Positions 317 through 48,242 of a stretch of 64,000 nt of DNA are shown piece by piece (positions within the stretch are counted from its first letter, which is position 1; each line of letters opens with the position of its first letter). Source of the DNA: an uncultured bacterium. GTDB taxonomy: Bacteria > Oederibacteriota > Muellerivitia > Muellerivitales > Muellerivitaceae. The position numbers were made by a program, and so were the translations under genes. The stretch lies in NCBI GenBank assembly GCA_964392085.1, contig CAYMOV010000001.1:3566-67565 (forward strand), in the 5' to 3' direction. The notes under the pieces are model-generated. The model ran no database searches and was not told the DNA's origin. It saw only the letters and a list, made by a program, of their open reading frames with translations.

Positions 317-1300
317 ATGAAGTCGATGTTCAAAATGATCGCGCTATCCATCGCTGTTTCCTCGATGTTTGTCTCGCCCCGGTTCTCGCAGGCCGCGGCC
401 CAAGGAGATTACACAAGTGAGGTTCTAGCCATCGGCGTGGGTGCCCGTGCCTTGGGGATGGGCGGGGCCTTTGTGGGCGCCGCTTCCGATTGTACGGCCG
501 CCTATTGGAACCCGGCAGGCCTTTCCTTGATCGACAACGTGGAAATCGCCACGATCCACGCTACGAAATCCTCGATCCAGACTTACGACTTTTTCAACGT
601 GGCGTTCAATACGGGGAAGAGCGGAAGCTACGCCATCAGTTATATTCGCCTCGCGGTGGACGACATCCCGGTCACTGGACCTTCAGGCCCAACGGTTCTT
701 TCCACGACCTCCGATGTGGAACAAGTCGCGTTGCTTTCCGGCGGTTGGCGCGTCGCGAAAAAGCTGGCCCTCGGAGTCAGCCTGAAGTTCCTACGGACCG
801 ACGTTTTCACGGCGTCCGCCACGGGGTTCGGCGCTGACTTGGGCTTGATCTACAAGCCGGTCAAACAACTTGGGATCGGCTTGAGCTTCCGGGACTTCAC
901 CGGCGGATCCTATGTCCAATGGAAGAATACCCCGACCGACCCCCTCCAGAAGATCGCCCCCAGCTTCAAAATCGGGGCTTCCTACACGACTGAATTAGGG
1001 AAAAGGGTCCAAACCCCCGGGACGAAGATTCCTGTCAGCACCTTATCCGTGAATTTCGACGCGGATACCCTCTATATCAGCAAGGGGTTGAACACGTACC
1101 ACTTCGGCGCCGAATATTGGTACCGGCAGTTCGTGGCCGTTCGGGGTGGGTTCGAAACGAACGGGTTCAAGTTTGACAAGGACTCCTTCGCCCCGGCCGT
1201 CGGGATCGGGGTTTGGGTCTACCTCTTTGAGATCGATTACGCGTTCGTGAACTACGAAATCTCGCCCACCCACTACTTGTCGACCATCACCCGTTTCTAA
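317..1300 (+). CDS. FadL/PorV-superfamily outer-membrane beta-barrel protein (327 aa), paralog of 10532..11494.
   Basis: N-terminal signal peptide. Gly-rich N-terminus followed by an A-x-x-D-x-x-A-x-Y-W-N-P-A-G-L motif, which is the NPA hatch signature of the FadL/TodX/PorV superfamily. Alternating amphipathic beta-strand pattern. The protein ends in Phe, a typical OMP C-terminus. Too short for canonical FadL, so PorV/PorQ-like is more likely. Confidence 0.7.
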   Translation: MKSMFKMIALSIAVSSMFVSPRFSQAAAQGDYTSEVLAIGVGARALGMGGAFVGAASDCTAAYWNPAGLSLIDNVEIATIHATKSSIQTYDFFNVAFNTGKSGSYAISYIRLAVDDIPVTGPSGPTVLSTTSDVEQVALLSGGWRVAKKLALGVSLKFLRTDVFTASATGFGADLGLIYKPVKQLGIGLSFRDFTGGSYVQWKNTPTDPLQKIAPSFKIGASYTTELGKRVQTPGTKIPVSTLSVNFDADTLYISKGLNTYHFGAEYWYRQFVAVRGGFETNGFKFDKDSFAPAVGIGVWVYLFEIDYAFVNYEISPTHYLSTITRF

Positions 1301-1311
1301 GAACAGTTAGA

Positions 1312-1345
1312 AGGCCCCTGCCGAAAGGCAGGGGCCTTTTTTTGG
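1312..1345 (+). terminator. Rho-independent terminator after the barrel gene.
   Basis: 11-bp GC stem AGGCCCCTGCC / GGCAGGGGCCT with a GAAA loop, followed by T7. Confidence 0.75.
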
Positions 1346-1493: not shown

Positions 1494-1521
1494 TTACCCG
1501 TAATTTGGCATCCTATATAAT
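1494..1521 (+). promoter_or_regulatory. Candidate promoter for the proline-rich protein gene (TTACCC, 16 nt, TATAAT).
   Basis: Perfect TATAAT at 1516-1521 inside an AT-rich tract upstream of 1619. Confidence 0.45.
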
Positions 1522-1618
1522 GCCTTAGTTTCAATTGGAAACCCCTACCCCCTTTCTCTTCCAGGGTTTCGAAGTCCGTTTAAGTGTTGATTCCACCCAT
1601 TCTCCTTCGAGGTACGGC

Positions 1619-4069
1619 ATGAAGCGGATTTCCCTCTTGGCCGCCTGCATCTTGACCCTTCCCGGTTTAGCCCGGGCTTATTACGCCGAATTCGTCAAGC
1701 CCTCCGCTCCGCCTCCCGTCGCCGAACAACGCCAAGATGAATTGCGGCCGATGTTCCATAAATCAACAATTTTGGGCGGACAGATCATCGCCCTGAAGGG
1801 CTCCAAAAATTCGTATTACGCGGAAAACCACATTGACGTCGGCGTCTTGGCCGGCGTCAAGTCGGGGGACATCTTCGCGGTCTATGACCCATCCGGCGAT
1901 CCGGTGGGGTTCATCCGGATCATCCAGCCGAATCGATATACCTCAACCTTTGATTTCGTGGAACTCACCATCCCCCCGTCGGAACACCTGATCGTCAAGA
2001 AAGTCCCCGCCTCGATCCAAGACAGCCTACCGGTGGGTTTGCGGGTGGAGCCCAAGCGCTTGGCCATGATCAAACATTCCGGGCCGAAACCTTCCTCGCC
2101 CGCCGTTCCGAGCGCTCCGGCGATTGGGTCTTCATCGAACGGTAATTTACCTCCCTTGCCCGGAAGCGAATCGAACGCCGCGTTGCCTCCTTTGCCGGGC
2201 TCAACGGATTCGGCCGCGTTACCTCCCTTGCCCGGTGCCGCCACCGACAACTCATTGCCTCCCTTGCCGGGTGCCGCCGGAAACGATAATTCATTGCCGC
2301 CTTTACCCGGCGCTTCGACCGACCAAACCCTTCCCCCTTTGCCGGGTTCCCCTGATTCGCAACCGGGTCTTCCTCCTTCGGGTGACTTGCCTCCGCTTCC
2401 CGGTTCGGAGCAATCCAAGGCCCCGATGCCGGAGTTGGCTTTGCCATCCTCCAAACCACCCCAGTCGATGGCGGATATCGGCGCCCTGCCTCCCCCGGAT
2501 TTTCCGTCGGGGGGTCCTGATCTTCCGCCTTTGCCGGGATCCGAAATTGGTTCGGGGACTCCTTCGGGCGGTGATATGGCGGCCTTGCCTCCGCTTCCGG
2601 GAGGCGGCCTTTCAGCCAGTCCGGCTTTGCCGGGTGAGCCTTCCGCCTCTCTTCCACCACTTTCCGGAGGCGATACGGGTGCATTGCCTCCGCCGATGAT
2701 GGAACAAGGGGCTTCCTTACCACCCTCGATGGACCTTCCCCCCGCGCCCGGTGAGCCGTTACCTCCCCCTTCAACGGGGGACTTAGCCATGCCGCCCTCG
2801 AAGGAACTCCCTCCCGCTCCTGGCGCGGAAACGAACGCTCCCGGTGCGATGGGCGACTTGGCGATGCCGTCTTCAATGGATATGCCCCCTGTGCCTGGCG
2901 AGGCGTTGCCTCCGCCTTCTTCGGGCGACTTGGCGATGCCGCCTGGGGTGGATTTGCCGCCCGCTCCCGGCTCTGCCATGCCTCCGGCTCCTTCGGGTGA
3001 TTTGGCGATGCCGCCTTCGATGGATTTGCCCTCCGCACCGGGCGAGGCGTTGCCTCCGGCTCCTTCGGGTGATTTGGCGATGCCGCCTTCGATGGATTTG
3101 CCCTCCGCACCGGGCGAGGCGTTGCCTCCGCCTTCTTCGGGCGACTTGGCGATGCCGCCTGGGATGGATTTGCCGCCCGCTCCCGGCTCTGCCATGCCTC
3201 CGGCTCCTTCGGGTGATTTGGCGATGCCGCCTTCGATGGATTTGCCCTCCGCACCGGGCGAGGCGTTGCCTCCGCCTTCTTCGGGCGACTTGGCGATGCC
3301 GCCTGGGATGGATTTACCGCCCGCTCCTGGTTCGACGACGGCTCCGGCCCCCACGGGCGACTTGGCCATGCCTCCCGGGATGGATTTGCCCCCAGCCCCG
3401 GGAGCTGAGTTGGCTCCTCCGCCTATGAACGACTTGGCGGCGCCTCCCGCCGCCTTAGGCGCCACAGCCCCTCCTCAGTTGGATTTACCGGATCTTCCAG
3501 GTTCCACTCCATCGGTGCCTTCGCCGATGTCGGGGGATTTGACCATGCCCCCTCCTGCGTCGGATATGCCGTCCGTCCCTACCGAGTTGGGAATGGCGGC
3601 CCCTCCCGCCGAGGGGATTCCTGGAATGGATTTACCTCCCGCTCCGGGTGATCAAGCCTCGCTGCCCCCGGCCCCAGCAGTGGGTTTGGGAACGATTCCT
3701 TCGATCCCCTCGGGACTGGATTTGGCTCCGCCGAGTTCGTCGGATCTCGCGGGTATGCCTCCCGCGCCGGCGGGCGACTTGACCGCGCCGCCTGCCTTGC
3801 CTGGTTCGGATATGCCGCCTTTGGCGGGGGACCTCATGGCCCCGCCGCCCGCATCACTGGGGGCGCCGCCTCCCGCTGATTTGGCGTCCCTGCCGGGATC
3901 CGGTTCGTCGGTTCCGCCCCTGCCGAGTGATTTGATTTCGGCTCCCGGGGGCTCTGCCCCGGTACTCGACAAACCCCTGGATTTGCCCTCCCTTCCGAGC
4001 GATGTCCCGCTTCGGGGGGATTCGCTCCAGGATTTGCCGACGCTTCGGAGCGGTCGCCCGAAGGCTTGA
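1619..4069 (+). CDS. Secreted proline-rich repetitive protein: about 150-aa N-terminal globular domain, then about 650 aa of LPPLPG / DLAMPPxMDLPxAPG repeats.
   Basis: The ORF track gives 1535..4069 from a TTG. The in-frame ATG at 1619 begins MKRISLLAACILTLPGLARA, a clean Sec signal peptide. The remainder is low-complexity and Pro/Leu/Gly/Asp/Ser-rich. Third-position GC bias is consistent with real coding. Confidence 0.7.
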   Translation: MKRISLLAACILTLPGLARAYYAEFVKPSAPPPVAEQRQDELRPMFHKSTILGGQIIALKGSKNSYYAENHIDVGVLAGVKSGDIFAVYDPSGDPVGFIRIIQPNRYTSTFDFVELTIPPSEHLIVKKVPASIQDSLPVGLRVEPKRLAMIKHSGPKPSSPAVPSAPAIGSSSNGNLPPLPGSESNAALPPLPGSTDSAALPPLPGAATDNSLPPLPGAAGNDNSLPPLPGASTDQTLPPLPGSPDSQPGLPPSGDLPPLPGSEQSKAPMPELALPSSKPPQSMADIGALPPPDFPSGGPDLPPLPGSEIGSGTPSGGDMAALPPLPGGGLSASPALPGEPSASLPPLSGGDTGALPPPMMEQGASLPPSMDLPPAPGEPLPPPSTGDLAMPPSKELPPAPGAETNAPGAMGDLAMPSSMDMPPVPGEALPPPSSGDLAMPPGVDLPPAPGSAMPPAPSGDLAMPPSMDLPSAPGEALPPAPSGDLAMPPSMDLPSAPGEALPPPSSGDLAMPPGMDLPPAPGSAMPPAPSGDLAMPPSMDLPSAPGEALPPPSSGDLAMPPGMDLPPAPGSTTAPAPTGDLAMPPGMDLPPAPGAELAPPPMNDLAAPPAALGATAPPQLDLPDLPGSTPSVPSPMSGDLTMPPPASDMPSVPTELGMAAPPAEGIPGMDLPPAPGDQASLPPAPAVGLGTIPSIPSGLDLAPPSSSDLAGMPPAPAGDLTAPPALPGSDMPPLAGDLMAPPPASLGAPPPADLASLPGSGSSVPPLPSDLISAPGGSAPVLDKPLDLPSLPSDVPLRGDSLQDLPTLRSGRPKA
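2903..3335 (+). repeat. Near-perfect tandem DNA repeats inside the proline-rich gene (144-bp unit 2903-3046, 72-bp half unit 3047-3118, 144-bp unit 3119-3262, partial unit from 3263).
   Basis: Identical nucleotide blocks seen directly. The 24-aa unit is SGDLAMPPSMDLPSAPGEALPPAP. Degenerate copies extend from about 2740 to 3440. Confidence 0.85.
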
Positions 4070-4097
4070 GCGCCCGTCCACAAAAACCTTTCGCATC

Positions 4098-4130
4098 GGG
4101 CCCCGGTCTTCCCGGGGCCCGTTCTGTTTG
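4098..4130 (+). terminator. Hairpin GGGCCCCGG-TCTTC-CCGGGGCCC followed by a GTTCTGTTTG tail.
   Basis: Perfect 9-bp inverted repeat read directly. The T-tract is weak. Confidence 0.5.
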
Positions 4131-4143
4131 AGGCCCCAGCGCG

Positions 4144-5298
4144 ATGCCCATCCTAATCCGTTCCTGCCTCACTTCCTTGATCGCGCCCTTTTTCCTGGCG
4201 ACGCTCTCGGTCCAGTTCTTCTTGAATCTCGCCTTTTACCTGCAGGAGTTTCTGGAGTACCTCTTGGTGAACCGGGTGGGTTGGTGGAACTCCTTCCGTC
4301 TTCTGTTGTTCATCCAACCCAGCTTCCTGGTCCTCACGCTCCCAGTGGCCTTCCTTTTCGCCCTGTTGCTGGTGATGGGACGGCTTTCCGCGGATCGGGA
4401 GTTGACGGCCCTGGAGTCCTGCGGGATATCCGGTTGGATGCTGTCGGGTCCGCTTTTGGCGGTGGGGCTGGTCTTCAGCGGGTTCATGGTCTATTTCATG
4501 GACCGGACCCTCCCCTGGGGAAACACCTCCTTCATCAAACTCCAATACGCCATCGTTTCCGAACAATCCGCCTTGGCCGTCAAGGAAAGGGTCTTCATCC
4601 GTGATTTCCCCGGGTACGAACTTTACGTGGGCCGCAAGGACGCCGGGGACAGGCTCCACAACGTCGAGGTGGCGTTGTTGGACTCGACCGGGAGCCCCGA
4701 ACGGCTGATCCTGGCCGAGGAAGGGGCCATCCGACGCGATCCTAAAACCTATAATGTCCTCTTGGAGTTGAGGACAGGCATCCTCCAGCAGGTGGGATGG
4801 GACAAGATTAAGGACCTTCCCAAGGAGAAGTTCCTCAACATGAACTTCGAAACCTGTTCCATCGACCTGGATCTCCGCCGGGCGCGTTCGGGGTTGGTGG
4901 ACACCAGCGGGGCCAATAATATCTCCGCCAAAAAACTTTATGAGCGGATCAAGCTTCGCGAATCCCGGGGGGAAAGACCCTTGGACGACGAGATCGGTCT
5001 CCAAAAGAAGTTCTCGATCCCCTTTTCGGCGTTGGCCTTCGCCCTCATTGGGGTCCCGATCGGCTACCGCAACCGGATGGGTTCCGTGGGCGGTGTGGTC
5101 CTCGCGATCCTCTTGATCCTGTGCTATTACCTGCTCCTGATGGGCGGTGAAATGCTGGCGCAGGACGGCCGGTTATCCCCGGCCTGGGCCATGTGGTCGC
5201 CGAATTTCCTGCTGGGTTCCATTGGGCTGGGCCTCTTATTTTGGGTCGTCCGAAGCCCGGTCCGTTCCTCGGCTGGGACTTTCGGGCGAAAAGGGTGA
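4144..5298 (+). CDS. LptF/LptG-family LPS export permease (YjgP/YjgQ), 384 aa.
   Basis: N-terminal TM helices, a large periplasmic loop, C-terminal TM helices, and a characteristic conserved N-terminus. Sits immediately upstream of lptD. Confidence 0.8.
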   Translation: MPILIRSCLTSLIAPFFLATLSVQFFLNLAFYLQEFLEYLLVNRVGWWNSFRLLLFIQPSFLVLTLPVAFLFALLLVMGRLSADRELTALESCGISGWMLSGPLLAVGLVFSGFMVYFMDRTLPWGNTSFIKLQYAIVSEQSALAVKERVFIRDFPGYELYVGRKDAGDRLHNVEVALLDSTGSPERLILAEEGAIRRDPKTYNVLLELRTGILQQVGWDKIKDLPKEKFLNMNFETCSIDLDLRRARSGLVDTSGANNISAKKLYERIKLRESRGERPLDDEIGLQKKFSIPFSALAFALIGVPIGYRNRMGSVGGVVLAILLILCYYLLLMGGEMLAQDGRLSPAWAMWSPNFLLGSIGLGLLFWVVRSPVRSSAGTFGRKG

Positions 5299-5356
5299 CG
5301 CCGTGACGACCCATCTCGCCCGCCGAAGGATTGGGAATCCCCGGTCTACCCTTGGA

Positions 5357-7450
5357 ATGCCTTTCGGGACATTCGCGACCCTCCTGCTCGTTTTCATTTT
5401 TGCCGCGCCGCGGGTTTCCGCTCAACCGGCCTTTGATTTAGGGTCGGGGGTGAAGTTGCAGGCCGACCGGGTCGAGTTTCTCCAGGACCAGGGCTTGATC
5501 CTCGCCCAGGGTAATGTGCACGTCCAACAGGAAGGAATCCATCTTTACGCCGACACCCTCCGGTTCGACCTGACATCGCAGCAATTGATCGCGGACGGCC
5601 ACGTCACTTGGCAACAGGACGGCCAGGAGGTTCAAGCCTCCAAAATCACCTACAACCTCGGGACCCACCGCGGGCACGCCAACGAGGTGAGGACCACCAC
5701 CCCCCCGTGGTATTTCACCGGTACGGACGTGGACCTGGAGCCGGGCTTGATCCGCTTGAGGAAGGCCCGTTTCACCACCTGCGATTACCCCACGGGATAC
5801 GAGCATTACCACCTCAGCGCGGGGACGATCCTCATCCGTACCGGCAAAAGCCTGTCAGCCCGAAACGTCGTCCTTTATATGGGTAAGGTCCCGGTCTTTT
5901 ACATCCCCTATTTCGCCAAGAACCTGAAGGATATCCGCGTCCCGTTCCAATTCGACACGGGCAGTTCCACCTATTTGGGGCGGTACGCGTTGATCACGGT
6001 CAACTATCTATTTAGCCCCACCAACTATGGTTCGGCTTACCTCGATTATTTCCAGAAAAAGGGCCTGGGTTTCGGGGTCCGACATGAGATCGAGTTGAAC
6101 AAGAATTCCGTCCTCTCACTTTACGGTTACTGGGTCCGTGAGAAAGACACCCATCAAACCCGTTGGGAGGGCCGGGTGAGGAACCTTTGGGCGGTTTCCT
6201 CGAAACTCCAGGGCCGGGTGGAGCTGGATGTCCCGGGGGACGGACTCTTCAGCCGGGACTACTCGATCGCGAGACGGGACCCCTCGCTGGTCTCCTCATT
6301 CCGCCAGTACGACACGTCCATGACCTGGAACCCCCGGGGGTTCACCTTGGGTGTTCTCCTGCGCCGTCAAGAGACGGCCTCCTATACGTCGTTAACCCAG
6401 ACTGTTTTCGATAAAAGCTACCTTGCCGCCCCCCAGGCCAACTTCAGCCTCTTCCCATTCACCATCCTGGGGTCGAAGGGTCCGAGGGCGGATTTGAGTT
6501 CGAATTTCACCCGACAATGGCTTTTGGCAAATGGGTACTACCAGCTGATCGGCTCCGCGGAGGGGGGAATCAGCCAAACCGTCAACCTGCGGAAGAGCCA
6601 GTCCCTTTATGGGCGGGTCGCACTCCAGGAGAATTACCTCAGTAAATCCGACCTGGGGGCCGATAACCATGGGGACCAACGCCATATGACCGGTCAGGCC
6701 ACTTGGACATCCAGGTGGCAAACGTTCTTGACGACCACCTTCGGGTTTAACTTCGCCCGGGCATTGTCCCACCTTCTTCCCACAGAGACCCCCCACCATG
6801 GGGTCACCCAAAAGCAATTGACCGCGTCACTGGAATATAACGCCATGCCGTTATTCCTTTCCCGGACCTCCACGACCTATGATTTCCTGGCGCAAACGGA
6901 CCACAACAACCAACGTTTTTCCCTCCTCCGGGAGGAGTTGACGGTGACGCCTTCCAAGACCTTCAACCTGGCCACGGTTGCGAACTTTTCCATCGTGGCG
7001 AAGGACCTGACGGACCTCAACCAGATCATGACCCTCCGGAGCCCCAAGGACATGTGGCGGATCAGCCTCTCGGCCAATTACGTCAACCCGGACGTCTCGT
7101 CCCAAGGGGTCACGGCCTCCGGATTGGACCGACAATTGAACATCACCACCGACATGTCCTTCGTCCTCTTCACCAATTACCGGTTGTCCGTGCTGGAATC
7201 CTATGATCTTGAGCGGGCGGTCTTCGTCAACCGGCAAGTGAGCCTTTATCGGGACCTCCACGATTGGGAGGCCCAGTTCAGCTATTCCCAGACGGAAGGG
7301 TCAGGCAGTCAAGTGTCATTCAGGTTGAACCTGAAGGCCTTCCCAGGAAGGCCCTTGACCGTCTCAAAGGAACAATTCGACCAATGGTCGGGGATGAGCA
7401 AGCAAAGCGCCGGTGAGTTGTCGCAAACAGCCGCCAGTGAGTTCCAATAG
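5357..7450 (+). CDS. lptD: LPS-assembly protein LptD (OstA) homolog, about 698 aa.
   Basis: Signal peptide MPFGTFATLLLVFIFAAPRVSA. OstA-like N-terminal domain (LQADRVEF...GNVHVQQEGIHLYADTLRFDL...), then a long beta-barrel region. The track ORF start at 5147 overlaps lptF/G and is an artefact of the open frame. Confidence 0.7.
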   Translation: MPFGTFATLLLVFIFAAPRVSAQPAFDLGSGVKLQADRVEFLQDQGLILAQGNVHVQQEGIHLYADTLRFDLTSQQLIADGHVTWQQDGQEVQASKITYNLGTHRGHANEVRTTTPPWYFTGTDVDLEPGLIRLRKARFTTCDYPTGYEHYHLSAGTILIRTGKSLSARNVVLYMGKVPVFYIPYFAKNLKDIRVPFQFDTGSSTYLGRYALITVNYLFSPTNYGSAYLDYFQKKGLGFGVRHEIELNKNSVLSLYGYWVREKDTHQTRWEGRVRNLWAVSSKLQGRVELDVPGDGLFSRDYSIARRDPSLVSSFRQYDTSMTWNPRGFTLGVLLRRQETASYTSLTQTVFDKSYLAAPQANFSLFPFTILGSKGPRADLSSNFTRQWLLANGYYQLIGSAEGGISQTVNLRKSQSLYGRVALQENYLSKSDLGADNHGDQRHMTGQATWTSRWQTFLTTTFGFNFARALSHLLPTETPHHGVTQKQLTASLEYNAMPLFLSRTSTTYDFLAQTDHNNQRFSLLREELTVTPSKTFNLATVANFSIVAKDLTDLNQIMTLRSPKDMWRISLSANYVNPDVSSQGVTASGLDRQLNITTDMSFVLFTNYRLSVLESYDLERAVFVNRQVSLYRDLHDWEAQFSYSQTEGSGSQVSFRLNLKAFPGRPLTVSKEQFDQWSGMSKQSAGELSQTAASEFQ

Positions 7451-10531: not shown

Positions 10532-11494
10532 GTGAAAATCAAGCGTTGGTTGGGCAGAACCTCCCTCGTCCTTGGGATGTTATTGGTGGGTCGGGCCGTC
10601 CAGGCCGGTGACCCCGGCACGACCGGCGCCGTGGAATTGAAGATTCCAGTGGGTCCCCGCGCCATCGCCATGGGGGGGGCATTCGGAGCCGTGGCGGATG
10701 ACGCCAACGCGATCTATTGGAACCCGGCGGGCCTTCGCCAATTGGGCGGGGTTCACCTGACGGCCCAGTACACCAACTTCATCGATACCATTAAATACAA
10801 TTATATCGCGGCCGCCATGCCCATGAGCGGCGGCAAGTACGCCTTGGGGCTCGCGGTCAAGATGCTTTCCACGGGTTCCACCGCTGAAATCAACGCCTTG
10901 GGCAATGACACGGGAGCCTCCATCAGCGAAAACTATATGGACGTCAATCTGGCGGGCGCCTTCAAGATCAACTACAACATTGATTTCGGGGTCACCGTCA
11001 AATACATCTCCAAGAGCCTCAAGAGCAGCAATTCCCAGAGTTCCTCGACCTTCGCGGGGGATTTGGGACTCCTTTATCATACCCCGGTCAAGCATTTGGT
11101 GGCGGCCTTGGTTTTTCAAAACGTCGGGCCCAGCCTTAAGTTCAACGACGCGGCCGACCATCTTCCATTTAACGTCAAGGTCGGGACGGCTTATAAGCTC
11201 TTCAACAACAATTTTACCGTGGCTTTCGACATGAACTTCCCGAACGACAACAAGCCCGCGGCCAGTTTGGGCGGCGAATATTGGTACAAGGACCGTTTGG
11301 TGGGCCGGTTCGGCTACCAATACCAGGGGGCGTTGGACCAGAATGACTTGGGCGTGGGTGGCATGGCCGGGCTGTACATGGGCGCGGGCCTGAAGTTCAA
11401 GGCTATGGGGACCACCTTAGGATTGGATTACGCTTGGTCCACCTCGGGTTTCCTCGGGACCGTGAACCGTTTCGCCCTCAACGTTTATATCTAA
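10532..11494 (+). CDS. FadL/PorV-superfamily outer-membrane beta-barrel protein (320 aa, GTG start), paralog of 317..1300.
   Basis: Signal peptide. AIAMGGAFGAVADDANAIYWNPAGL hatch motif. C-terminal GGEYWYKDRLVGRFGY block matches paralog 1. Ends in an aromatic-X-hydrophobic pattern. Confidence 0.7.
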   Translation: MKIKRWLGRTSLVLGMLLVGRAVQAGDPGTTGAVELKIPVGPRAIAMGGAFGAVADDANAIYWNPAGLRQLGGVHLTAQYTNFIDTIKYNYIAAAMPMSGGKYALGLAVKMLSTGSTAEINALGNDTGASISENYMDVNLAGAFKINYNIDFGVTVKYISKSLKSSNSQSSSTFAGDLGLLYHTPVKHLVAALVFQNVGPSLKFNDAADHLPFNVKVGTAYKLFNNNFTVAFDMNFPNDNKPAASLGGEYWYKDRLVGRFGYQYQGALDQNDLGVGGMAGLYMGAGLKFKAMGTTLGLDYAWSTSGFLGTVNRFALNVYI

Positions 11495-14561: not shown

Positions 14562-15035
14562 ATGAACCCCGAAGAACTGAAGTCTTCCTTGGAACGCGAC
14601 TTCGCCGGCTCCCTGGCATCGGTGGCGGTGACGCCCCAAAAGGAAGTCCTGGCGGTCGTGAAGGCCGAATCCTACGTGGACTTCTGCCGGTCCCTCCGGG
14701 ACCGGAAGGATTATGGCTTCGGCCACCTTTCCTGCCTGACAGCGGTGGATTACCCGGCGGCGAACAAGATCACCGTGGTCTGCCACTTTTGGTCCTACGA
14801 GCATCGGCACCAACTGACGGTCAAGTTGGATGTGGACCGTGGCCAGCCGAAAGCCCCGAGCTTGGACGGTTTGTGGAAAAGCGCCGATTGGTTCGAGAGG
14901 GAAGTGTTCGACCTTTATGGGGTGGTCTTCGAGGGGCACCCCAACCTGCGTCGAATCATGATGCCGGACGACTACAAAAAGTTCCCACTCCGCAAGGACT
15001 TCACCGATGACGGATTTATTGTTAAGCCAAATTAA
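14562..15035 (+). CDS. nuoC: NADH-quinone oxidoreductase subunit C (157 aa).
   Basis: NuoC/30-kDa subunit motifs (ADWFEREVFDLYGVVFEGHPNLRRI). Start at the ATG at 14562; the track ORF begins upstream without support. Confidence 0.9.
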   Translation: MNPEELKSSLERDFAGSLASVAVTPQKEVLAVVKAESYVDFCRSLRDRKDYGFGHLSCLTAVDYPAANKITVVCHFWSYEHRHQLTVKLDVDRGQPKAPSLDGLWKSADWFEREVFDLYGVVFEGHPNLRRIMMPDDYKKFPLRKDFTDDGFIVKPN

Positions 15036-16152
15036 GCTGGGTGACGAGTCCCCGTCGGGTACCGACGAGTACGTGGTCAACCTGGGGCCGCAGCACCCGG
15101 CCACCCACGGGGTGCTGCGGTTGGTCGTCAAACTGGACGGCGAATCGGTGATGGAAACCATCCCCGTGCTGGGCTACCTGCACCGGTCCATCGAGAAGAT
15201 CTGCGAAAACAGGACCTTTCCCCAGGGCATCACCTACACGGACCGGGTGGATTACGCCTCCGCCATGACCGTCAATCTGGCCTGGAGCCTTGCCTCCGAG
15301 CGCCTCTTGGCCATCGAGGCCCCCGTCCGGGCCCAGTGGCTCCGCATGATTTTCACCGAACTCCAACGGATCGCCAGCCACCTCCTTTGGTTCGGCGCCT
15401 TTGGGGGCGATCTGGGGGCCTTTACGCCCTTTCTCTATGGTCTCCGGGAACGGGAACGGATCCTCGACCTCTTTGAGATGACCTGCGGCCAGCGACTGAC
15501 CTACAACTACATCCGGATCGGCGGCGTCATGATCGACGTCCTCCCAGAATTCGTCCCGAAATGCCGGGCCTTCCTGGATTATTTCGAGCCCAAGATTGAC
15601 GAGTACGAAAAGCTCATGACGTACAACCCGATCTTCCTGGAGCGTACGAAAGGGGTGGGGATCATTCCCGCCGAAACGGCCGTGAATTGGGGAATCTGCG
15701 GGCCTTCCCTCCGCGGGTCGGGAGTGACCTGCGACGTAAGGAAGCAGACTCCTTACCTTTTCTATGACCAGGTAAAGTGGGAAGAACCCTTGGAGTATGG
15801 GGCGGATTGTTGGAGCCGTTATAAAGTCAGGATGAACGAGCTTCGCCAGTGCGTTTCGATCATCCGGCAAAGCCTCGATCGCCTGGAACCCGGGCCCGTG
15901 GAAGCCAAGATGCCGCCGATCCTGAAGGCGCCCAAGGATTCTGAGGTTTATTTCAGGACCGAATCCTCCCGGGGTGAGATGGGCATCTACCTGGTAGGGG
16001 ATGGGACCGCCAAACCTTGGAAGAGCAAGTTCCGAACGGCCTCCTTCAGCAACCTGGCGATCCTCGACAAGATCACCCGGGGATGGAAAGTGGCGGACAT
16101 CATGGCGGTATTGGGAAGCCTCGACATGATCGTTCCGGAAGTGGATCGGTAA
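15007..16152 (+). CDS. nuoD: NADH-quinone oxidoreductase subunit D.
   Basis: NLGPQHPATHGVLRL start and conserved 49-kDa subunit sequence throughout. Overlaps the nuoC end by 29 nt. Confidence 0.95.
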   Translation: MTDLLLSQIKLGDESPSGTDEYVVNLGPQHPATHGVLRLVVKLDGESVMETIPVLGYLHRSIEKICENRTFPQGITYTDRVDYASAMTVNLAWSLASERLLAIEAPVRAQWLRMIFTELQRIASHLLWFGAFGGDLGAFTPFLYGLRERERILDLFEMTCGQRLTYNYIRIGGVMIDVLPEFVPKCRAFLDYFEPKIDEYEKLMTYNPIFLERTKGVGIIPAETAVNWGICGPSLRGSGVTCDVRKQTPYLFYDQVKWEEPLEYGADCWSRYKVRMNELRQCVSIIRQSLDRLEPGPVEAKMPPILKAPKDSEVYFRTESSRGEMGIYLVGDGTAKPWKSKFRTASFSNLAILDKITRGWKVADIMAVLGSLDMIVPEVDR

Positions 16153-16223
16153 GTCGCGGCCCTTTGGTTGGGGGGGCGTTTCAAGTGGGTTTGGATTTCA
16201 TCCGGTGGATCAGGAGCTAACAC

Positions 16224-17312
16224 GTGAGCGGCGCTGACATCCTCATGACGGTCAAGGCACTCCTTCAACCCGTTTTCCAGGCGTTGGGGCTTTCCCCGAC
16301 CCTGCAAACCGTGGTTTACGCGGCCCTCTCCGCGGCCGTGGTCTTCAACGTGGCGGCGGGATTGACCACTTTCCTGGTCTGGATGGAGCGGAAGGTCTCC
16401 GCCCACATGCAAAGCCGCATCGGACCCAAACGGGTCGGACCTTTCGGCCTGCTCCAAACCGTTGCGGACGCCATTAAGTTGACGATCAAGGAGGATGTCC
16501 GCCCAGCACATCGGGACAAGATCCCCTATTTTTTGGCCCCCATCATCGGTTTTGTGGCGGCTTTCATGGGTCTCGTGGTCATTCCCTTCGACAGGGGTTT
16601 CGTGGTCGAGGACCTCAACGTGGGTATCCTTTACGTGGTGGCCATCACCGGCTTCAGCGTGATCGGGATCTTGATGGCGGGTTGGAGTTCCAACAACAAG
16701 TTCTCGCTTTTGGGGGGGTTCCGTTCCGCGGCCCAGATCGTCAGCTATGAAGTCCCCCTGGTGCTGTCGGTCATCCCGGTCATCATGGTGACGGGGACCC
16801 TCAGCCTCCACCACGCGGTGGAATACCAGGCGGTCAACGGCTGGTGGTTCACGAGCCTCCGCTACGCGGTCCCCATGGCCGTCGCCTTCATGGTTTTCCT
16901 GACCTCCGCGACCGCTGAGGCCAACCGGGCCCCCTTTGATATTCCCGAGGCCGAATCGGAGTTGGTGGCCGGGTTTCACACGGAATATTCGGGCGTCAAG
17001 TGGGCCATGTTCTTCCTCGGGGAGTACATCGCCGTGGTGGTGTCGTCCTGCGTGGCGGTGTCACTCTTTTTGGGAGGTTGGCTTGCGCCCCCGGGGGTGG
17101 ACGCGCTGTTTGGGATGATGCACCTACCCTTCCTGCCGGGCTACCTCTGGTTCCTCCTGAAGTTGCTAGTGATCATCTACTTCATCATGGCGTTTCGCTG
17201 GACGTTTCCCCGATTGCGGGTCGACCAACTGATGGACTTCGGCTGGAAAGTCCTGATCCCCATCGCGGTTTTAAACATCCTATTGACCGGCCTTTTGGTG
17301 TTGGGCGCCTGA
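16224..17312 (+). CDS. nuoH: NADH-quinone oxidoreductase subunit H.
   Basis: MERKVSAHMQSRIGPKRVGPFGLLQ signature, 8 TM helices. GTG start 72 nt after nuoD, so nuoEFG cannot fit between them. Confidence 0.95.
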   Translation: MSGADILMTVKALLQPVFQALGLSPTLQTVVYAALSAAVVFNVAAGLTTFLVWMERKVSAHMQSRIGPKRVGPFGLLQTVADAIKLTIKEDVRPAHRDKIPYFLAPIIGFVAAFMGLVVIPFDRGFVVEDLNVGILYVVAITGFSVIGILMAGWSSNNKFSLLGGFRSAAQIVSYEVPLVLSVIPVIMVTGTLSLHHAVEYQAVNGWWFTSLRYAVPMAVAFMVFLTSATAEANRAPFDIPEAESELVAGFHTEYSGVKWAMFFLGEYIAVVVSSCVAVSLFLGGWLAPPGVDALFGMMHLPFLPGYLWFLLKLLVIIYFIMAFRWTFPRLRVDQLMDFGWKVLIPIAVLNILLTGLLVLGA

Positions 17313-17340
17313 AATCAGCCGGTTTGGAGAGGGGGAGAAC

Positions 17341-17892
17341 ATGCTGGGTGTTTTAGCCAAGTACGTGATGGACATCCTGAAGGGGTTCTGGAACCTGGTC
17401 CTTGGCCTTTCGGTCACGATCAAGTACTTTTTCCTGAAAACCAACACCTACCAATACCCGGATGAGCGCCTCCCCCTGCCGGAGCGCAGCCGAAGCATGA
17501 TCAAGTTGATTTACGACGGCGAGAAGGACCAGTTCAACTGCGTGGCCTGCATGATGTGCGCCAAGGCCTGTCCCAACAGCTGCATCAAACTCGAGGGTGT
17601 GCGGGGCGCCGACGGCAAGCGCCGCGTCACGACGTTCCAATTGGACTTCTCGACCTGCATCTTCTGCGGGTATTGCGTCGAAGCCTGCGGGTTCGACGCC
17701 CTGACGTTCGTGTCGGAGGAATACGAGAATTCGGTTTACCACCGCGGGAGCCTCTTGCAGGACGAACAGGCCATGAAATGGGTCCGGCCGTCGCACCTGT
17801 CCCCCCCGAAGGAAGAAAAACCGGTCGTGGCGGTTCCGTCGGCCCCTTTAGGAGCGTCTTCGGTACCGCCGGCCCAGGGAGCGTCCGCCTGA
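17341..17892 (+). CDS. nuoI: NADH-quinone oxidoreductase subunit I (2x[4Fe-4S]).
   Basis: Two CxxCxxCxxxCP ferredoxin motifs (CVACMMCAKACP, CIFCGYCVEAC). Confidence 0.95.
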   Translation: MLGVLAKYVMDILKGFWNLVLGLSVTIKYFFLKTNTYQYPDERLPLPERSRSMIKLIYDGEKDQFNCVACMMCAKACPNSCIKLEGVRGADGKRRVTTFQLDFSTCIFCGYCVEACGFDALTFVSEEYENSVYHRGSLLQDEQAMKWVRPSHLSPPKEEKPVVAVPSAPLGASSVPPAQGASA

Positions 17893-18407
17893 TGTCCAAC
17901 GCGATCTTTTACGTCCTGTCAGCGATCGTCGTTTTGTCCGCCCTGATGGCGGTCACCCAGCGCAACCTTTACCATTGCTCGCTTTACCTGGTGCTGTCCC
18001 TTTTCGGGACCGCCGGCGTGTTCCTTTACCTGGGGCAGGAGTTCCTGGCCGCCGTCCAGATCCTCATTTACGTGGGGGCCGTCACGGTCCTCCTGATCTT
18101 CGGGATCATGCTGACCCGACAGGTGATGGACGCACGGGTGAAGACGATGAACAAGCAGGTAGGGATGGCCTTCGTGGTATCCGCGGGGATGGTCCTGGCC
18201 ATGGTCAAGGCCTTCGGACACGGCGTCCCGAGGATGACTTCCTTGGGGAGGGGCCAAGGCGCCGGTTGGGGCGGTGATGTCGGTTCCCTGGGGTTGGCAC
18301 TCTTGAGGCCCGACCAGGGGTTCGTCTTCGCCTTTGAACTGCTTTCCTTCCTCCTCCTTTCGGCCTTGGTGGGCGCCATCGTGGTGGCCCGAAAGGAGAA
18401 CGACTGA
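17892..18407 (+). CDS. nuoJ: NADH-quinone oxidoreductase subunit J (171 aa).
   Basis: MSNAIFYVLSAIVVLSALMAV... ND6-like. The ATG overlaps the nuoI stop (ATGA). Confidence 0.9.
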   Translation: MSNAIFYVLSAIVVLSALMAVTQRNLYHCSLYLVLSLFGTAGVFLYLGQEFLAAVQILIYVGAVTVLLIFGIMLTRQVMDARVKTMNKQVGMAFVVSAGMVLAMVKAFGHGVPRMTSLGRGQGAGWGGDVGSLGLALLRPDQGFVFAFELLSFLLLSALVGAIVVARKEND

Positions 18408-18721
18408 TGGACTCGGGCATTCCGATGGAACACTTCCTGGTTTTGGCCGCCCTTCTGTTTGGGATCGGCCTTTTCGGCGTCCTCGCCCGCAAGAACGCGA
18501 TCGCGGTTCTGATGGGCATTGAGTTGATGCTGAACGCCGTCAACATCAATTTCCTGGCGTTCGCCCGGGAGTGGGGCGGCGGCATGGCGGGGACTGTTTT
18601 CGTGGTCTTTGTCATCGCCGTGGCTGCGGCCGAGGCGGCCGTCGCGCTGTCCATCATCATCGCCATCCACCGCCGGTTTAAGAGCGCCAACGTGGACGAA
18701 GTCGATCACCTGAAGAACTGA
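18407..18721 (+). CDS. nuoK: NADH-quinone oxidoreductase subunit K.
   Basis: 104 aa ND4L-like, 3 TM helices. 1-nt overlap with nuoJ. Confidence 0.9.
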   Translation: MDSGIPMEHFLVLAALLFGIGLFGVLARKNAIAVLMGIELMLNAVNINFLAFAREWGGGMAGTVFVVFVIAVAAAEAAVALSIIIAIHRRFKSANVDEVDHLKN

Positions 18722-18751
18722 CCGTGGACCCGTTACTCCTGGAGGATTCGA

Positions 18752-20668
<1,917 letters not shown>

Positions 20669-20675
20669 GGAACCC

Positions 20676-22286
20676 ATGACCTCCCAAGCCATAAGCCTTC
20701 CCGATGAAAGCCGCGCGACCCTGTTGGCGGGATCCCTGATCCCGGGGTTGCTCGGTTATTTCCTTTTGCCCCGCCCCGAGGCGGGACAACTGGCCGTACC
20801 CCTGTTGTCGTTTTTCGTGGTCCTGCCCATGCTGGTCTCGTTCCTCATGATCGTGGCGCCGGGAAAGAGCTACCGGTGGCTGGGCCTCGCGGTGAGCGCC
20901 TTGACCGTCGGGATGTCGATCCGCCTTTTCGGCTTCTACGGGCAGGCCCCCGCGGGTTTTCAATTCACCGAACAGGTGCCTTGGCTCTCCAACCTCGGGA
21001 TCAACTACATCGTGGCGGTGGACGGGATCAGCGTCCTGATGGTGATCTTGACCTCCGTGATCTATTTCACGGGAACCGTGACGTCCTGGAATATGGAGCC
21101 CCGCGGAAAGGAGTTTTTCGTCCTCTTCAACCTCCTGGTGGGCGGGGTTTTCGGGGTTTTCGTGAGCCTGGACCTCTTCTTCTTCTTCATGTTCTACGAA
21201 CTTGCCGTCCTTCCCATGTACCTCCTCATCGGCATCTGGGGCTCGGGCCCGAAGGAATACGCGGCCATGAAGCTGACGCTGTACCTCCTGGCGGGCTCGG
21301 CCTTCATGTTGGTGGCCTTCATCGCCATGTATTTCGGCTCCGCGGTCCATACCTTTGACCTGCGGGTCCTCATGGACCCGGTGAGGACGGCCTTCAGCTT
21401 TGGGTTCCAGAAATTCTGGTTTCCCTTCCTTTTCGTCGGGTTCGGCGTGATCGGGGCCCTTTGGCCACTCCATACCTGGTCCCCGGACGGCCACTCGTCG
21501 GCGCCGACCTCGGTCTCCATGCTCCATGCCGGGGTCTTGATGAAACTAGGCGGTTTCGGGATCATCCGGGTCGCCCTCCCCTGCATGCCCGACGGGGCGC
21601 GATATTGGCTGCCGCTGTTCGCACTCCTGACCATCGTGAACATCCTTTATGGCTCGATCGCCGCCCTGAAACAGACGGACCTCAAGTTCGTCACGGCCTA
21701 TTCCTCGGTGTCCCACTGCGGGTACGTTCTTTTCGGCATCTGCACGATGGATAAGATCGGCATCAACGGCGCCGTGATGCAGATGTTCTCCCACGGCATC
21801 ATGACGGCCCTGTTCTTCTGCATGATCGGTTTCATCTACGGCCGAACCCATACCCGGGACATCCCGAAGCTGGGGGGCCTGTTGGCGGTTTTCCCCCTGG
21901 TGGGATCCCTTTACATCGCGACGGGCATGGCTTCGGTGGGCTTGCCGGGGATGTCCGGGTTCGTGGCGGAATTCATGATTCTAGTCGGGGCCTACCAGTC
22001 GGGATATCAGCATAACTTCGGGTACTTCAAGATCCTGTTCCCCATGGCCATCCTGGCGGTGGGGGTGACGGCCATTTATGTCCTTCGGGTGCTACAAAAC
22101 GTGTTTTACGGCCCCGTGAAGGACCCCCACTACAAGGGTCTCCCACAAGCCCGGTTCATCGAGTATTTCCCGATGGCCCTGTTGATGGGGGTCATCCTGA
22201 TGGTGGGCTTGTACCCTAAACCCTTCGTGGACCTCGTCAATACCGCGGTGGGACCCTTGATCGACCACGTGGGAGGCTTTAAGTGA
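20676..22286 (+). CDS. nuoM: NADH-quinone oxidoreductase subunit M.
   Basis: 536 aa ND4-like antiporter subunit. Confidence 0.95.
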   Translation: MTSQAISLPDESRATLLAGSLIPGLLGYFLLPRPEAGQLAVPLLSFFVVLPMLVSFLMIVAPGKSYRWLGLAVSALTVGMSIRLFGFYGQAPAGFQFTEQVPWLSNLGINYIVAVDGISVLMVILTSVIYFTGTVTSWNMEPRGKEFFVLFNLLVGGVFGVFVSLDLFFFFMFYELAVLPMYLLIGIWGSGPKEYAAMKLTLYLLAGSAFMLVAFIAMYFGSAVHTFDLRVLMDPVRTAFSFGFQKFWFPFLFVGFGVIGALWPLHTWSPDGHSSAPTSVSMLHAGVLMKLGGFGIIRVALPCMPDGARYWLPLFALLTIVNILYGSIAALKQTDLKFVTAYSSVSHCGYVLFGICTMDKIGINGAVMQMFSHGIMTALFFCMIGFIYGRTHTRDIPKLGGLLAVFPLVGSLYIATGMASVGLPGMSGFVAEFMILVGAYQSGYQHNFGYFKILFPMAILAVGVTAIYVLRVLQNVFYGPVKDPHYKGLPQARFIEYFPMALLMGVILMVGLYPKPFVDLVNTAVGPLIDHVGGFK

Positions 22287-23731: not shown

Positions 23732-23739
23732 ACCGCCCG

Positions 23740-24195
23740 ATGGGGGGCCCCCTTTTCCCGGTTTTCCTCGACCTGCGTGGGAAGCGCTGCCTGGTGGTCG
23801 GGGGGGGGAAGGTTGGGCTCCGTCGCGCGGGGAAGCTCCTGGCCGCAGGGGCTTGGGTCCGCCTGGTCGCCCCGGTCCTCGGTTCCAGTCCCCCAAAAAC
23901 CTCCGCACGATTGACGGTTCACCGCAGGCCCTTTCGGCCCTCCGACCTGAAGGGAGTGCGGTTGGTATTCGCCTGCACGAATGATCCCCGGGTCAACGCG
24001 GCGGTCGTCCGACGGTCCCGTCGTTTGGGCCTCTGGGCCAACCGGGCCGACGCGAGGGATTCGGATTTCATCCTCCCGGCCGTGGCGACGAGACGGGGCG
24101 TGATGGCGGCCTTTTCAACCTTAGGGCGTTCGCCTTCGTTGGCGCGCCGTCTTCGGATAGAATGGTCCCGTCCCCAACGGCGGACCAAAGACTAA
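23740..24195 (+). CDS. Precorrin-2 dehydrogenase-like protein (siroheme synthase N-terminal NAD-binding domain, SirC/Met8-like), 151 aa.
   Basis: LRGKRCLVVGGGKVGLRRAGKLLAAGA Rossmann motif and VFAxTNDPxVN block typical of the CysG N-terminus/SirC. Shorter than full SirC, so it may lack the ferrochelatase part. Confidence 0.6.
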   Translation: MGGPLFPVFLDLRGKRCLVVGGGKVGLRRAGKLLAAGAWVRLVAPVLGSSPPKTSARLTVHRRPFRPSDLKGVRLVFACTNDPRVNAAVVRRSRRLGLWANRADARDSDFILPAVATRRGVMAAFSTLGRSPSLARRLRIEWSRPQRRTKD

Positions 24196-24213
24196 ATACC
24201 CAGGGAGCGCCCC

Positions 24214-28785: not shown

Positions 28786-28803
28786 TTAATAGGTCCCGAT
28801 TGA

Positions 28804-28840
28804 AACCCGTCGTTGGGATTGACGGGGTTGGTTTTATAAT
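28804..28840 (+). promoter_or_regulatory. Hairpin (AACCCGTCG...GACGGGGTT then GGTTTT) followed by a TATAAT, a possible partial terminator or internal promoter before hemB.
   Basis: Read directly in the 112-nt gap between cobA-hemD and hemB. Confidence 0.3.
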
Positions 28841-28897
28841 GTCCTCACGAAACTTGGACTTGAGTCCGGGTGAATGGCCGAACGAAAGAGGGATTCC

Positions 28898-29869: not shown

Positions 29870-29943
29870 AAACACGGATGGCGGTTGGCGTATAGCGGTT
29901 GGCCAAAACAACGAATCAACCTAAAGCATTAATCGGGGACAAA

Positions 29944-31251: not shown

Positions 31252-31318
31252 GGGTCTGTTATAATCTTAACAGCGTCGTAACCCCACCCTTGGGGCGATT
31301 CGATTTCCAGGATGGTGC

Positions 31319-48176: not shown

Positions 48177-48242
48177 GGGTTGTGCCGGCTCCGCCAAGTG
48201 GGGACTAATTTTGATAAAATCCACGGGTTTGTGAAACAAAGG

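Follow-up and report, generated by a model that had tools for sequence, protein, structure and literature searches.

A candidate cell-envelope protein with a proline-rich, size-variable repeat tail represents an undescribed family of the uncultured phylum FCPU426

A 64,000-nucleotide stretch of contig CAYMOV010000001.1 (assembly GCA_964392085.1) from an uncultured bacterium, in the following called the window, contains downstream of a gene for an outer-membrane barrel a long reading frame whose translation is dominated by proline-rich repeats. This locus raises the question whether such a sequence is a genuine gene and, if so, what its product does and whether its length is stable. The protein starting at position 1619 has 816 aa and 24% Pro overall; it is composed of a predicted Sec signal peptide, a conserved N-terminal domain and a proline-rich tail that ends in a conserved C-terminal module. 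Our preferred interpretation of these sequence features, to which we assign a probability of about 0.5, is that it represents a lineage-specific tether or brush of the FCPU426 cell envelope, each end of which serves as a docking module. The positions of all elements are listed in Table 1.

The open reading frame extends from 1535 to 4069 on the plus strand. ATG 1619 is the likely start codon, because it is preceded by GAGG at a distance of 6 nt and because independent gene callers agree on it in sibling contigs; in the sibling contig L002, identical start and stop codons were assigned. The sequence GAGGT(A/T) is kept with equal spacing to the ATG at nearly all orthologous loci. Further reading frames overlapping the gene on the minus strand (1882..3465 and 2070..3254) and in the alternative plus frames have Arg/Pro/Gly-rich translations and lack conserved counterparts, and the signal peptide, the N-terminal domain and the C-terminal peptide all lie in the frame of ATG 1619, in agreement with the preliminary description of this locus, which had regarded the other frames as artefacts. 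Its assumption of a real exported repeat protein is supported by the N-terminal domain and the C-terminal peptide, which are kept in frame across ~20 species. Off-frame Pro/Arg-rich noise was found across the GC-rich window, and the proline-rich gene is the sole genuine Pro-rich ORF there; Pro-richness as a genome-wide property was rejected, as the remaining Pro-rich ORFs of the window represent such noise. At one locus of a sister lineage (L005:9433-11048, minus strand), the source gene caller had picked three minus-strand ORFs of 60, 96 and 321 aa and not the plus-strand gene of 565 aa, which in the siblings of this contig, L006-L008, was called in the plus frame.

A phmmer search with the N-terminal domain against 1.84 billion representative proteins retrieved only 17 clusters, all at E<=1e-10 (1e-11 to 1e-59). 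With the exception of a few short fragments, the retrieved proteins carry a signal peptide, the conserved domain and an LPPLPG-like proline-rich tail. The motifs of the domain follow the layout GGQ[VI]IAL ... NYID.G ... GD[VI]FA ... PVGF ... F.F.EL, then the Pro-rich tail, and the window protein aligns throughout. When one genome per GTDB species was scanned with patterns built from a subset of five sequences, as the full alignment of 16 sequences was too divergent, 20 loci were obtained. The corresponding genomes are mostly labelled candidate division FCPU426; for a few, the records give uncultured bacterium, Proteobacteria or Firestonebacteria, probably owing to loose labelling. As judged from these searches, the family is restricted to the uncultured phylum FCPU426. 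The records originate from palsa and bog sites, the MFD sample series, groundwater and Centralia.

Pfam and NCBIfam scans of the whole protein and of the N-terminal domain gave no match (NCBIfam: 0 families at E<=1 with the full protein), and a profile of the N-terminal domain had no match among PDB sequences (best E 0.11). The preliminary description had proposed to search the N-terminal domain against domain families; of these, the Pfam and NCBIfam models were covered, and none matched. The family is undescribed, with no model in Pfam or NCBIfam and no annotated function. A literature search found the motif string "LPPLPG" in none of 8 million papers, and the literature on FCPU426 that was retrieved consists of diversity surveys. 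A word-indexed homologue search with the N-terminal domain in a large protein collection was also without match, because five of the six assembled versions of the protein that were looked up are missing from the collection: an exact look-up in this set of 15 billion sequences showed that the products of the window, L001, L002, L006 and L007 are absent. The contigs and gene calls for the absent products of L001, L002, L006 and L007 are on record, and a low-complexity filter is a possible reason for their absence. Single-sequence scans of genome and metagenome contigs gave no match, and a second metagenome scan revealed five more distant relatives and no further alleles of the window population.

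The N terminus has the features of a Sec signal peptide. Its hydrophobic core reaches a Kyte-Doolittle 9-mer average of up to 2.9, the A-x-A motif precedes a Tyr that is kept across the family, and the same layout is common to all 16 aligned family members. These features indicate that the protein is probably exported via Sec and cleaved after ARA. The single Cys of the protein lies in a lipobox-like LAAC sequence (aa 7-10) after only 6 hydrophobic residues. The possibility of a bacterial lipoprotein was rejected, as this Cys is absent from all other family members.

The domain following the signal peptide is basic (pI 8.8), and the alignment of 16 sequences contains 16 invariant columns. An AlphaFold2 (AF2) model calculated with this alignment had a mean predicted local distance difference test score (pLDDT) of 78.9 and ten-residue block means of 80-96 over aa 31-140, compared to a pLDDT of 47.8 for a model calculated from the single sequence. 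In the former, a single helix (aa 34-47) precedes six strands that form a small beta-barrel. The preliminary description had proposed a globular domain of ~150 aa; the conserved region indeed has about this length, whereas the folded core predicted by AF2 comprises only ~100 aa (~aa 33-135). In a Foldseek comparison with the PDB, a single match had an E value below 1e-3, namely 8z5n (E 4.6e-4), the LPHT flagellar ring of Vibrio. The next matches were FlgT (3w1e), several MreC structures (2j5u, 6zm0; E = 9e-3 to 2e-2) and many N-terminal "crown" barrels of F1/V1 ATPases, with template modelling (TM) scores of ~0.3-0.37 and identities of 10-22%. The model points to the kind of small beta-barrel that often mediates protein-protein contacts and ring formation in the periplasm, and to nothing more specific.

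FlgT and MreC, the best structural matches of the barrel, are both periplasmic and act by protein-protein contacts. In contrast to the window protein, neither of them has a proline-rich tail, and the similarity is limited to a TM score of ~0.35 over 65-115 aligned columns with 14-22% identity. FlgT was rejected as an assignment, as there was no Pfam match, the likeness concerns a single barrel (TM 0.34-0.35), and flagellar genes were not detected anywhere in the 64-kb window. MreC was rejected due to the lack of a PF04085 match.

The tail comprises 646 aa and contains 27% Pro, 13% Ala, 13% Leu, 11.8% Ser, 11% Gly and 2.8% Thr. It is strongly acidic, with 8 Lys and Arg residues versus 64 Asp and Glu residues, a calculated pI of 4.05 and a net charge of -56. 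Two repeat regions can be distinguished, the first with nine exact LPPLPG motifs (aa 177-328) and the second with eight DLAMPP units (aa 388-586). The ~650 aa of repeats reported previously thus hold true with respect to the length of the tail; recognisable repeats make up ~45% of it, and the remainder consists of degenerate Pro-rich sequence and the C-terminal module. At the DNA level, the first region is represented by two repeat families (D6 and D8) with a 36-bp period and 64-75% identity. It is collinear with the corresponding protein of the sister lineage: within the first 300 residues, which are collinear between the two lineages, the LPPLPG positions were retained and the spacers were altered. 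A non-repetitive island at aa 268-300 is conserved between these two lineages only, which may reflect mere relatedness.

To what extent the motifs exceed the expectation from composition was determined with composition-preserving shuffles. The window tail contains 29 matches to the pattern [LMIV]P[PAS][LMIVA]P, compared to 1.6 +/- 1.2 in the shuffled sequences, and the pattern is enriched 8-30x in each of the 14 other family members analysed. In most cases, Gly stands after the LPPLP-type motif and Gly, Ser or Asp before it. This enrichment is characteristic of a short linear motif or a structural polyproline-II element under selection, beyond the effect of composition alone. Since the enrichment also holds in members without TRF-detected (Tandem Repeats Finder) tandem repeats at the DNA level (among them L009-L012, L016, L018 and L021), the motif array is maintained and not just a legacy of recent duplication.

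The C-terminal module of ~30 aa is kept in at least 15 family members and has the consensus L-x-L-P-A-V-P-S-x-V-x-x-G-[YF]-[LIV]-Q-D-[ILV]-P-T-[LF], with or without SSxKKPAA, or, in a fuller form, L(N/G)(L/I)P(A/S)VP(S/T)xVxxG(Y/F)(L/I/V)QD(I/L/V)PT(L/F). In the window protein it reads ...LDLPSLPSDVPLRGDSLQDLPTLRSGRPKA. The module is absent from the sister lineage (L005-L008), from L024/L025 and from the paralogue L027. In four further loci (L013, L020, L022, L023), it is encoded downstream of breaks within the proline-rich region, in another frame or past an ambiguous base. As the module continues out of frame or downstream, these genes are frameshifted and their products would truly have ~700-860 aa; automatic annotation would truncate them. 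The frameshifts in L013, L020 and L023, which derive from MFD assemblies, and in L022, a metagenome-assembled genome from a bog, probably reflect assembly errors in C/G runs and not pseudogenes. A sortase (LPXTG) substrate was considered and rejected, as the C terminus (...LQDLPTLRSGRPKA) lacks both a Gly at position 5 and a hydrophobic segment.

The second repeat region is encoded by a young tandem array. Analysis with TRF and with a unit identity matrix confirmed the tandem organisation that had been proposed: TRF reported a period of 72 with 7.9 copies and 79% matches and a period of 216 with 2.6 copies, 88% matches and a score of 850. All array periods are multiples of 3. In-register identity was 100% for the units at 3071 and 3215, 99% for those at 2927 and 3143 and 96% for those at 2999 and 3071, and the longest exact direct repeats measure 121 bp (3051/3195), 110 bp (2949/3165) and 80 bp (2979/3051). 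Of four units previously considered almost identical, starting at 2903, 3047, 3119 and 3263, the first and the third share 98.6-99.3% identity, the one at 3263 reaches 93-94% over 72 bp, and the start at 3047 is only ~81% identical, because it begins the other of the two unit sub-types.

The locus of the same population was seen in three independent metagenome assemblies (L001, L002, L003). L002 encodes the same 816-aa architecture as the window, with 8 nucleotide differences, 7 of which are located inside the array. L001 encodes a protein of 744 aa, which differs from the window by one clean in-frame deletion of 216 bp (three units) and 2 mismatches. The best placement of a single deletion has a cut range of 2949-3059 and lies within the 110-bp exact repeat, and the flanks of L001 show 0-1 differences from the window over 1.6 and 3.2 kb. 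The PorV-like protein of the sister lineage shares 70% identity with that of the window. Four assemblies of this lineage, from different projects, encode proteins of 411, 540, 565 and 640 aa, and these alleles are distinguished by how many copies of a 75-bp unit and of a 78-bp unit they contain. The repeat number thus varies among close relatives by whole units, as had been anticipated. As unit lengths differ between the lineages (72 versus 75 and 78 bp) and units within a lineage are near-identical, the arrays show concerted evolution. Whole-unit variation by unequal recombination or slippage is well supported by these comparisons.

Based on these results, we propose the following model. The protein would be exported by Sec, and the mature form remaining after cleavage would have a mass of ~78 kDa and consist of the small basic N-terminal beta-barrel, an acidic proline-rich chain of ~600 aa and the C-terminal peptide of ~30 aa. 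The chain is expected to be extended or disordered and not to fold compactly; it would carry 29 hydrophobic (L/M)P(P/A)(L/M/A)P motifs and could reach a contour length of up to ~200 nm if it were fully in polyproline-II conformation. The two conserved ends might dock to envelope partners and possibly also to each other's motifs, with the chain serving to space them and to present LPPLP motifs in multivalent form. The protein would be retained at the periplasm or the outer membrane and not be released. At the DNA level, the exact repeats of 80-121 bp could feed unequal recombination or replication slippage, giving rise to in-frame whole-unit alleles.

Several observations weigh against this model. 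The fold matches of the N-terminal domain are weak (TM ~0.35, one match with E < 1e-3) and point to a generic barrel. The C-terminal module would be dispensable, as two lineages lack it. Conserved gene order around the locus is weak evidence for function, because the block also holds an unrelated UvrA gene and terminator-like hairpins intervene. Every length allele derives from short-read metagenome assemblies, which are able to mis-join repeats. Furthermore, a contour length of 200 nm far exceeds the width of the periplasm, so that a surface brush or a coiled disordered chain fits better than a taut strut.

The proline-rich gene is framed by two terminator-like hairpins. The hairpin between the PorV-like gene and the proline-rich gene has a fold energy of -31.7 kcal/mol (z = -4.9; 0 of 200 shuffled sequences folded equally well), and an equivalent hairpin with a T-run is present 3' of the PorV-like gene at most orthologous loci. 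For the hairpin located shortly upstream of the LptF/G gene, values of -29.9 kcal/mol and z = -4.6 were obtained. Because of these two structures, the proline-rich gene looks monocistronic and probably represents its own transcription unit. A promoter of its own with a TATAAT element had been suggested. The hexamer is present; the proposed promoter could not be substantiated, as a consensus promoter scan upstream of the gene revealed no acceptable -35/-10 pair and the hexamer at 1516-1521 is not kept in other species, L007 and L017 having TATAAT at other distances.

The gene order is fixed in all FCPU426 loci with a PorV-adjacent copy, each judged as far as its sequence extends: GT-C glycosyltransferase (minus strand), PorV-like protein, proline-rich protein, LptF/G, LptD-like protein and UvrA. 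The neighbourhood is suggestive of an envelope role of the proline-rich protein and is not proof of it. The PorV-like protein scored 98.3 bits with the broad subfamily model NF033709 (PorV_fam; cutoff 90), confirming that the proline-rich gene lies directly downstream of a FadL/PorV-like barrel gene, and it had weak Pfam matches to Toluene_X and UPF0164. In the type IX secretion system (T9SS), PorV binds C-terminal domains of cargo proteins. By analogy, and in line with the cell-surface or extracellular fibrous protein suggested in the preliminary description, it is conceivable, although we regard it as only half as probable as the envelope tether or brush, that the protein crosses the outer membrane to form a surface fibril, adhesin or coat, and that the PorV-like barrel exports or anchors it via the C-terminal peptide. 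The adjacency of a PorV/PorQ-family gene at every locus with a PorV-adjacent copy, the conserved, signal-like C-terminal module and a contour length of ~200 nm, longer than any periplasm, would fit this possibility, as would a size variation limited to the proline-rich gene, which is typical of exposed proteins under diversifying pressure. The apparently monocistronic organisation with a strong Shine-Dalgarno sequence and flanking terminators also resembles that of abundant structural proteins.

On the other hand, the PorV-like protein remained below the cutoffs of the T9SS equivalog models NF033710 PorV (33.2 versus 250 bits), NF033711 PorQ (40.8 versus 220 bits) and NF052325 PorV2 (132.5 versus 325 bits), and Pfam and NCBIfam scans of the proline-rich protein revealed no T9SS C-terminal domain (type A/B), no outer-membrane translocation signal and no other secretion domain. 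For this reason, the protein is at least as likely to reside in the periplasm or in association with the outer membrane as on the surface. The C-terminal module has just ~30 aa and is missing in two lineages, a terminator separates the two genes, and distant PorV-like homologues outside the clade have different neighbours, with no Pro-rich protein among them. The window protein shares with T9SS cargo the N-terminal Sec signal, a conserved C-terminal element and the adjoining PorV/PorQ-family gene; it differs in the lack of a folded C-terminal domain of ~80 aa and in a neighbour far below the cutoff for true PorV. Classification as T9SS cargo was rejected, as the NCBIfam scan revealed no sorting domain of ~70-100 aa (type A TIGR04183 or type B TIGR04131) and the conserved C-terminal element has only ~30 aa. 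No T9SS is known from the phylum FCPU426.

The GT-C enzyme encoded two genes upstream of the proline-rich gene opens another possibility, which we consider somewhat less probable still and which fits either localisation: the tail might be a glycosylation substrate, making the protein a mucin- or extensin-like glycoprotein. The gene lies just upstream of the window start (L002:3071-5464, minus strand) and is divergent from the PorV-like gene. It encodes a protein of 797 aa with an N-terminal zinc ribbon that matches Pfam PMT/PMT_2 and scores 222 bits with TIGR03663 (Agl23-like; cutoff 126), and it is kept at every locus extending far enough. A second PMT_2 protein is encoded in the window at 48180-50447 on the plus strand. 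The tail contains its Ser and Thr residues amid Pro, which is the usual setting of bacterial O-glycosylation; the Ala/Pro-rich Apa antigen of mycobacteria is subject to Sec-coupled O-mannosylation. Like Apa and plant extensins, the window protein is a secreted Pro/Ser/Ala-rich chain with a PMT-like GT-C enzyme encoded nearby. In contrast to them, it shows no homology, its motif is LPPLPG and not SPPPP or DPxP, and its glycosylation is only postulated. Such GT-C enzymes also modify lipids or lipid A, which would suit the Lpt neighbours equally well, and the adjacency is weak evidence given that the whole 12-kb block including UvrA is syntenic. The Pro/Ser-rich protein, by glycosylation, and lipid A are both possible substrates of either of the two GT-C/PMT_2 enzymes.

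A coupling protein that spans the periplasm in the manner of TonB, TolA or LpoB, with one end fixed and the proline-rich part reaching a partner through the cell wall, appears unlikely. The arrangement of a proline-rich spacer between two conserved ends, the similarity of the N-terminal domain to the periplasmic barrels of FlgT and MreC and the adjoining outer-membrane biogenesis genes are consistent with such a function, and TonB and TolA likewise have an extended proline-rich segment between terminal modules in an envelope-biogenesis context. However, no TonB_C, TolA or LpoB domain was found in the Pfam and NCBIfam scans, the signal peptide is of the cleavable type and not an N-terminal membrane anchor, and the LAAC Cys is not conserved. 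The spacer is several-fold over-long and ranges from ~300 to 700 aa between species; in the window protein it is ~5-10x longer than in TonB/TolA and, unlike theirs, acidic and length-variable. TonB itself was rejected, as there is no match to its C-terminal domain and an A-x-A signal peptide replaces the transmembrane anchor.

The differences in copy number might be questioned on technical grounds, namely that they result from collapse or expansion during short-read assembly and that each population has one true length; we consider this improbable. All alleles stem from short-read metagenome contigs (k141 or NODE names), the contig L003 breaks off inside the array, L004 ends just 5' of the gene, and the concentration of window-L002 differences in the array is where mis-phasing between units would appear. 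However, none of the longest exact repeats (121, 110 and 80 bp) reaches the length of k = 141. The junction in L001 represents a new linkage and not a sub-path of the long allele: it joins a unit-specific base (Val codon of unit 2927) to sub-type sites 110-125 nt downstream, a combination absent from the long allele that recurs in the independent contig L003. As this span is smaller than k = 141 and than a typical read of 150 nt (an assumed read length), the junction can be phased and a simple collapse is unlikely. Moreover, the full 816-aa architecture was reproduced independently by L002, and the four lengths in the sister lineage differ in whole-unit steps across four independent assemblies.

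The least probable of the ideas considered is that the basic N-terminal domain, as an SH3-like or FlgT-like barrel, binds the LPPLP (PxxP-type) motifs of neighbouring molecules and that the protein would self-assemble into a phylum-defining acidic polyproline meshwork on or under the outer membrane. If this were true, the meshwork could serve as a spacer, as a shield against phages or predators or, comparable to salivary proline-rich proteins, which act as polyphenol/tannin sinks, as such a sink in peat, and repeat gain or loss would tune its thickness.

Size-variable, proline-rich, repeat-bearing envelope proteins are already familiar; the family described here is new. Examples of proteins with a coding variable-number tandem repeat (VNTR) are Bordetella pertactin with its GGxxP/PQP regions, the group B streptococcal alpha C/Rib proteins, Mycoplasma Vlp and the middle repeat region of Helicobacter CagY. 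The window gene resembles this class in its near-identical in-frame DNA units and in its whole-unit alleles with conserved, identical flanks (816 versus 744 aa, as deduced from short-read assemblies). It differs from the listed proteins in that it shows no sequence homology to them, comes from an uncultured environmental bacterium that does not have to evade a host immune system and has an array of hydrophobic-proline motifs in an acidic disordered chain and not a folded repeat domain. The finding does not open a long-standing question. It provides the first description of an unannotated family with a fixed position next to outer-membrane biogenesis genes in an uncultured phylum common in peat and soil, and this family may serve as a marker of the FCPU426 envelope and might also be part of its structure. 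The 72-bp array is suitable for strain typing. Assembly and gene calling are prone to errors at this array, as seen from contig breaks, four frameshifted assemblies and the wrong strand in a JGI contig.

Table 1. Sequence elements of the proline-rich gene and its surroundings (window positions)
Element	Position	Strand	Basis
PorV/PorQ-family (FadL-like) outer-membrane barrel gene, upstream neighbour	317..1300	+	NF033709
Intrinsic-terminator-like hairpin with T-run ending the PorV-like transcription unit; stem 1312-1337	1312..1344	+	Fold energy
TATAAT hexamer, candidate -10 element	1516..1521	+	Sole TATAAT of the intergenic region
Shine-Dalgarno sequence GAGG, 6 nt 5' of ATG	1609..1612	+	Read directly from the sequence
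Coding sequence of the 816-aa probably exported proline-rich protein, stop codon included	1619..4069	+	ORF list; gene calls in sibling contigs; N-terminal domain and C-terminal module kept in frame
Predicted Sec-type signal peptide, aa 1-20, MKRISLLAACILTLPGLARA, then YY	1619..1678	+	Basic n-region, hydrophobic core, A-x-A
Conserved N-terminal domain, aa 21-174; predicted folded core ~aa 33-135 (nt 1715-2023)	1679..2140	+	phmmer, alignment, AF2
First array, nine LPPLPG motifs with a spacing of ~12-45 aa, aa 177-328; diverged at the DNA level	2147..2602	+	Motif positions
Non-repetitive island in the tail, aa 268-300, ELALPSSKPPQSMADIGALPPPDFPSGGPD	2420..2518	+	Pairwise alignment with L007 (sister lineage)
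Young tandem array of 72-bp (24-aa) units DLAMPP(S/G)MDLP(S/P)APG..., two alternating sub-types; size-variable part	2851..3417	+	TRF, identity matrix
110-bp exact direct repeat, copy 1	2949..3058	+	Exact repeat; breakpoint of the 216-bp deletion inside
110-bp exact direct repeat, copy 2	3165..3274	+	Exact repeat
Conserved C-terminal module, aa 785-816, KPLDLPSLPSDVPLRGDSLQDLPTLRSGRPKA	3971..4066	+	Alignment of C termini
GC-rich terminator-like hairpin, 10 G-C pairs, then TTCTGTTT; shortly 5' of LptF/G	4097..4121	+	Consensus scan
LptF/LptG-family lipopolysaccharide export permease gene, downstream neighbour	4144..5298	+	Pfam PF03739, E 5e-74

Some further observations were made on the surrounding genes. 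The longest ORF of the LptD-like gene (5147-7450, plus strand) starts with GTG 5147 and overlaps the LptF/G gene by 150 nt; the gene callers in the sibling contigs start at the equivalent of 5357, giving a protein of 697 aa. This protein is only a weak match to LptD (52 bits; cutoff 944) and shows some similarity to the LptA, LptC and CT351 models as well. Directly 3' of the UvrA gene, a second FadL/PorV-like barrel gene is located at 10532-11494 on the plus strand (Toluene_X 28.4 bits, just below the cutoff), so that the Lpt/UvrA block is bracketed by two barrels. The family paralogue L027 (L027:7965-8759), a short second member of 264 aa in MFD05512.bin.2.30 without the C-terminal module, lies at an unrelated locus; its neighbours, coding for a ROK protein, an aldo-keto reductase, a desaturase and an adjoining subtilase-Kelch protein of 1213 aa, are uninformative.

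Proteins with a PA14 domain are encoded in the window at 40288-42399 on the plus strand (703 aa) and upstream of the locus in two sibling contigs (L001/L002:1-2250; 816-960 aa), and they may be carbohydrate-binding envelope or secreted proteins. The region from ~15000 to 33100 has housekeeping functions: a Complex I (nuo) cluster at ~15.0-23.7 kb is followed at 24.2-31.3 kb by a cytochrome c assembly gene and a haem biosynthesis cluster (GluTR, HemC, HemD/methylase, HemB, HemL) and then by genes for two tetratricopeptide repeat proteins. Rfam and tRNA scans of the 64-kb window gave no matches and no tRNA genes. At 42852-44024 on the minus strand, a ZapA domain covers only the first 91 residues of a 390-aa ORF, which is overlapped on the other strand by an ORF of 387 aa.

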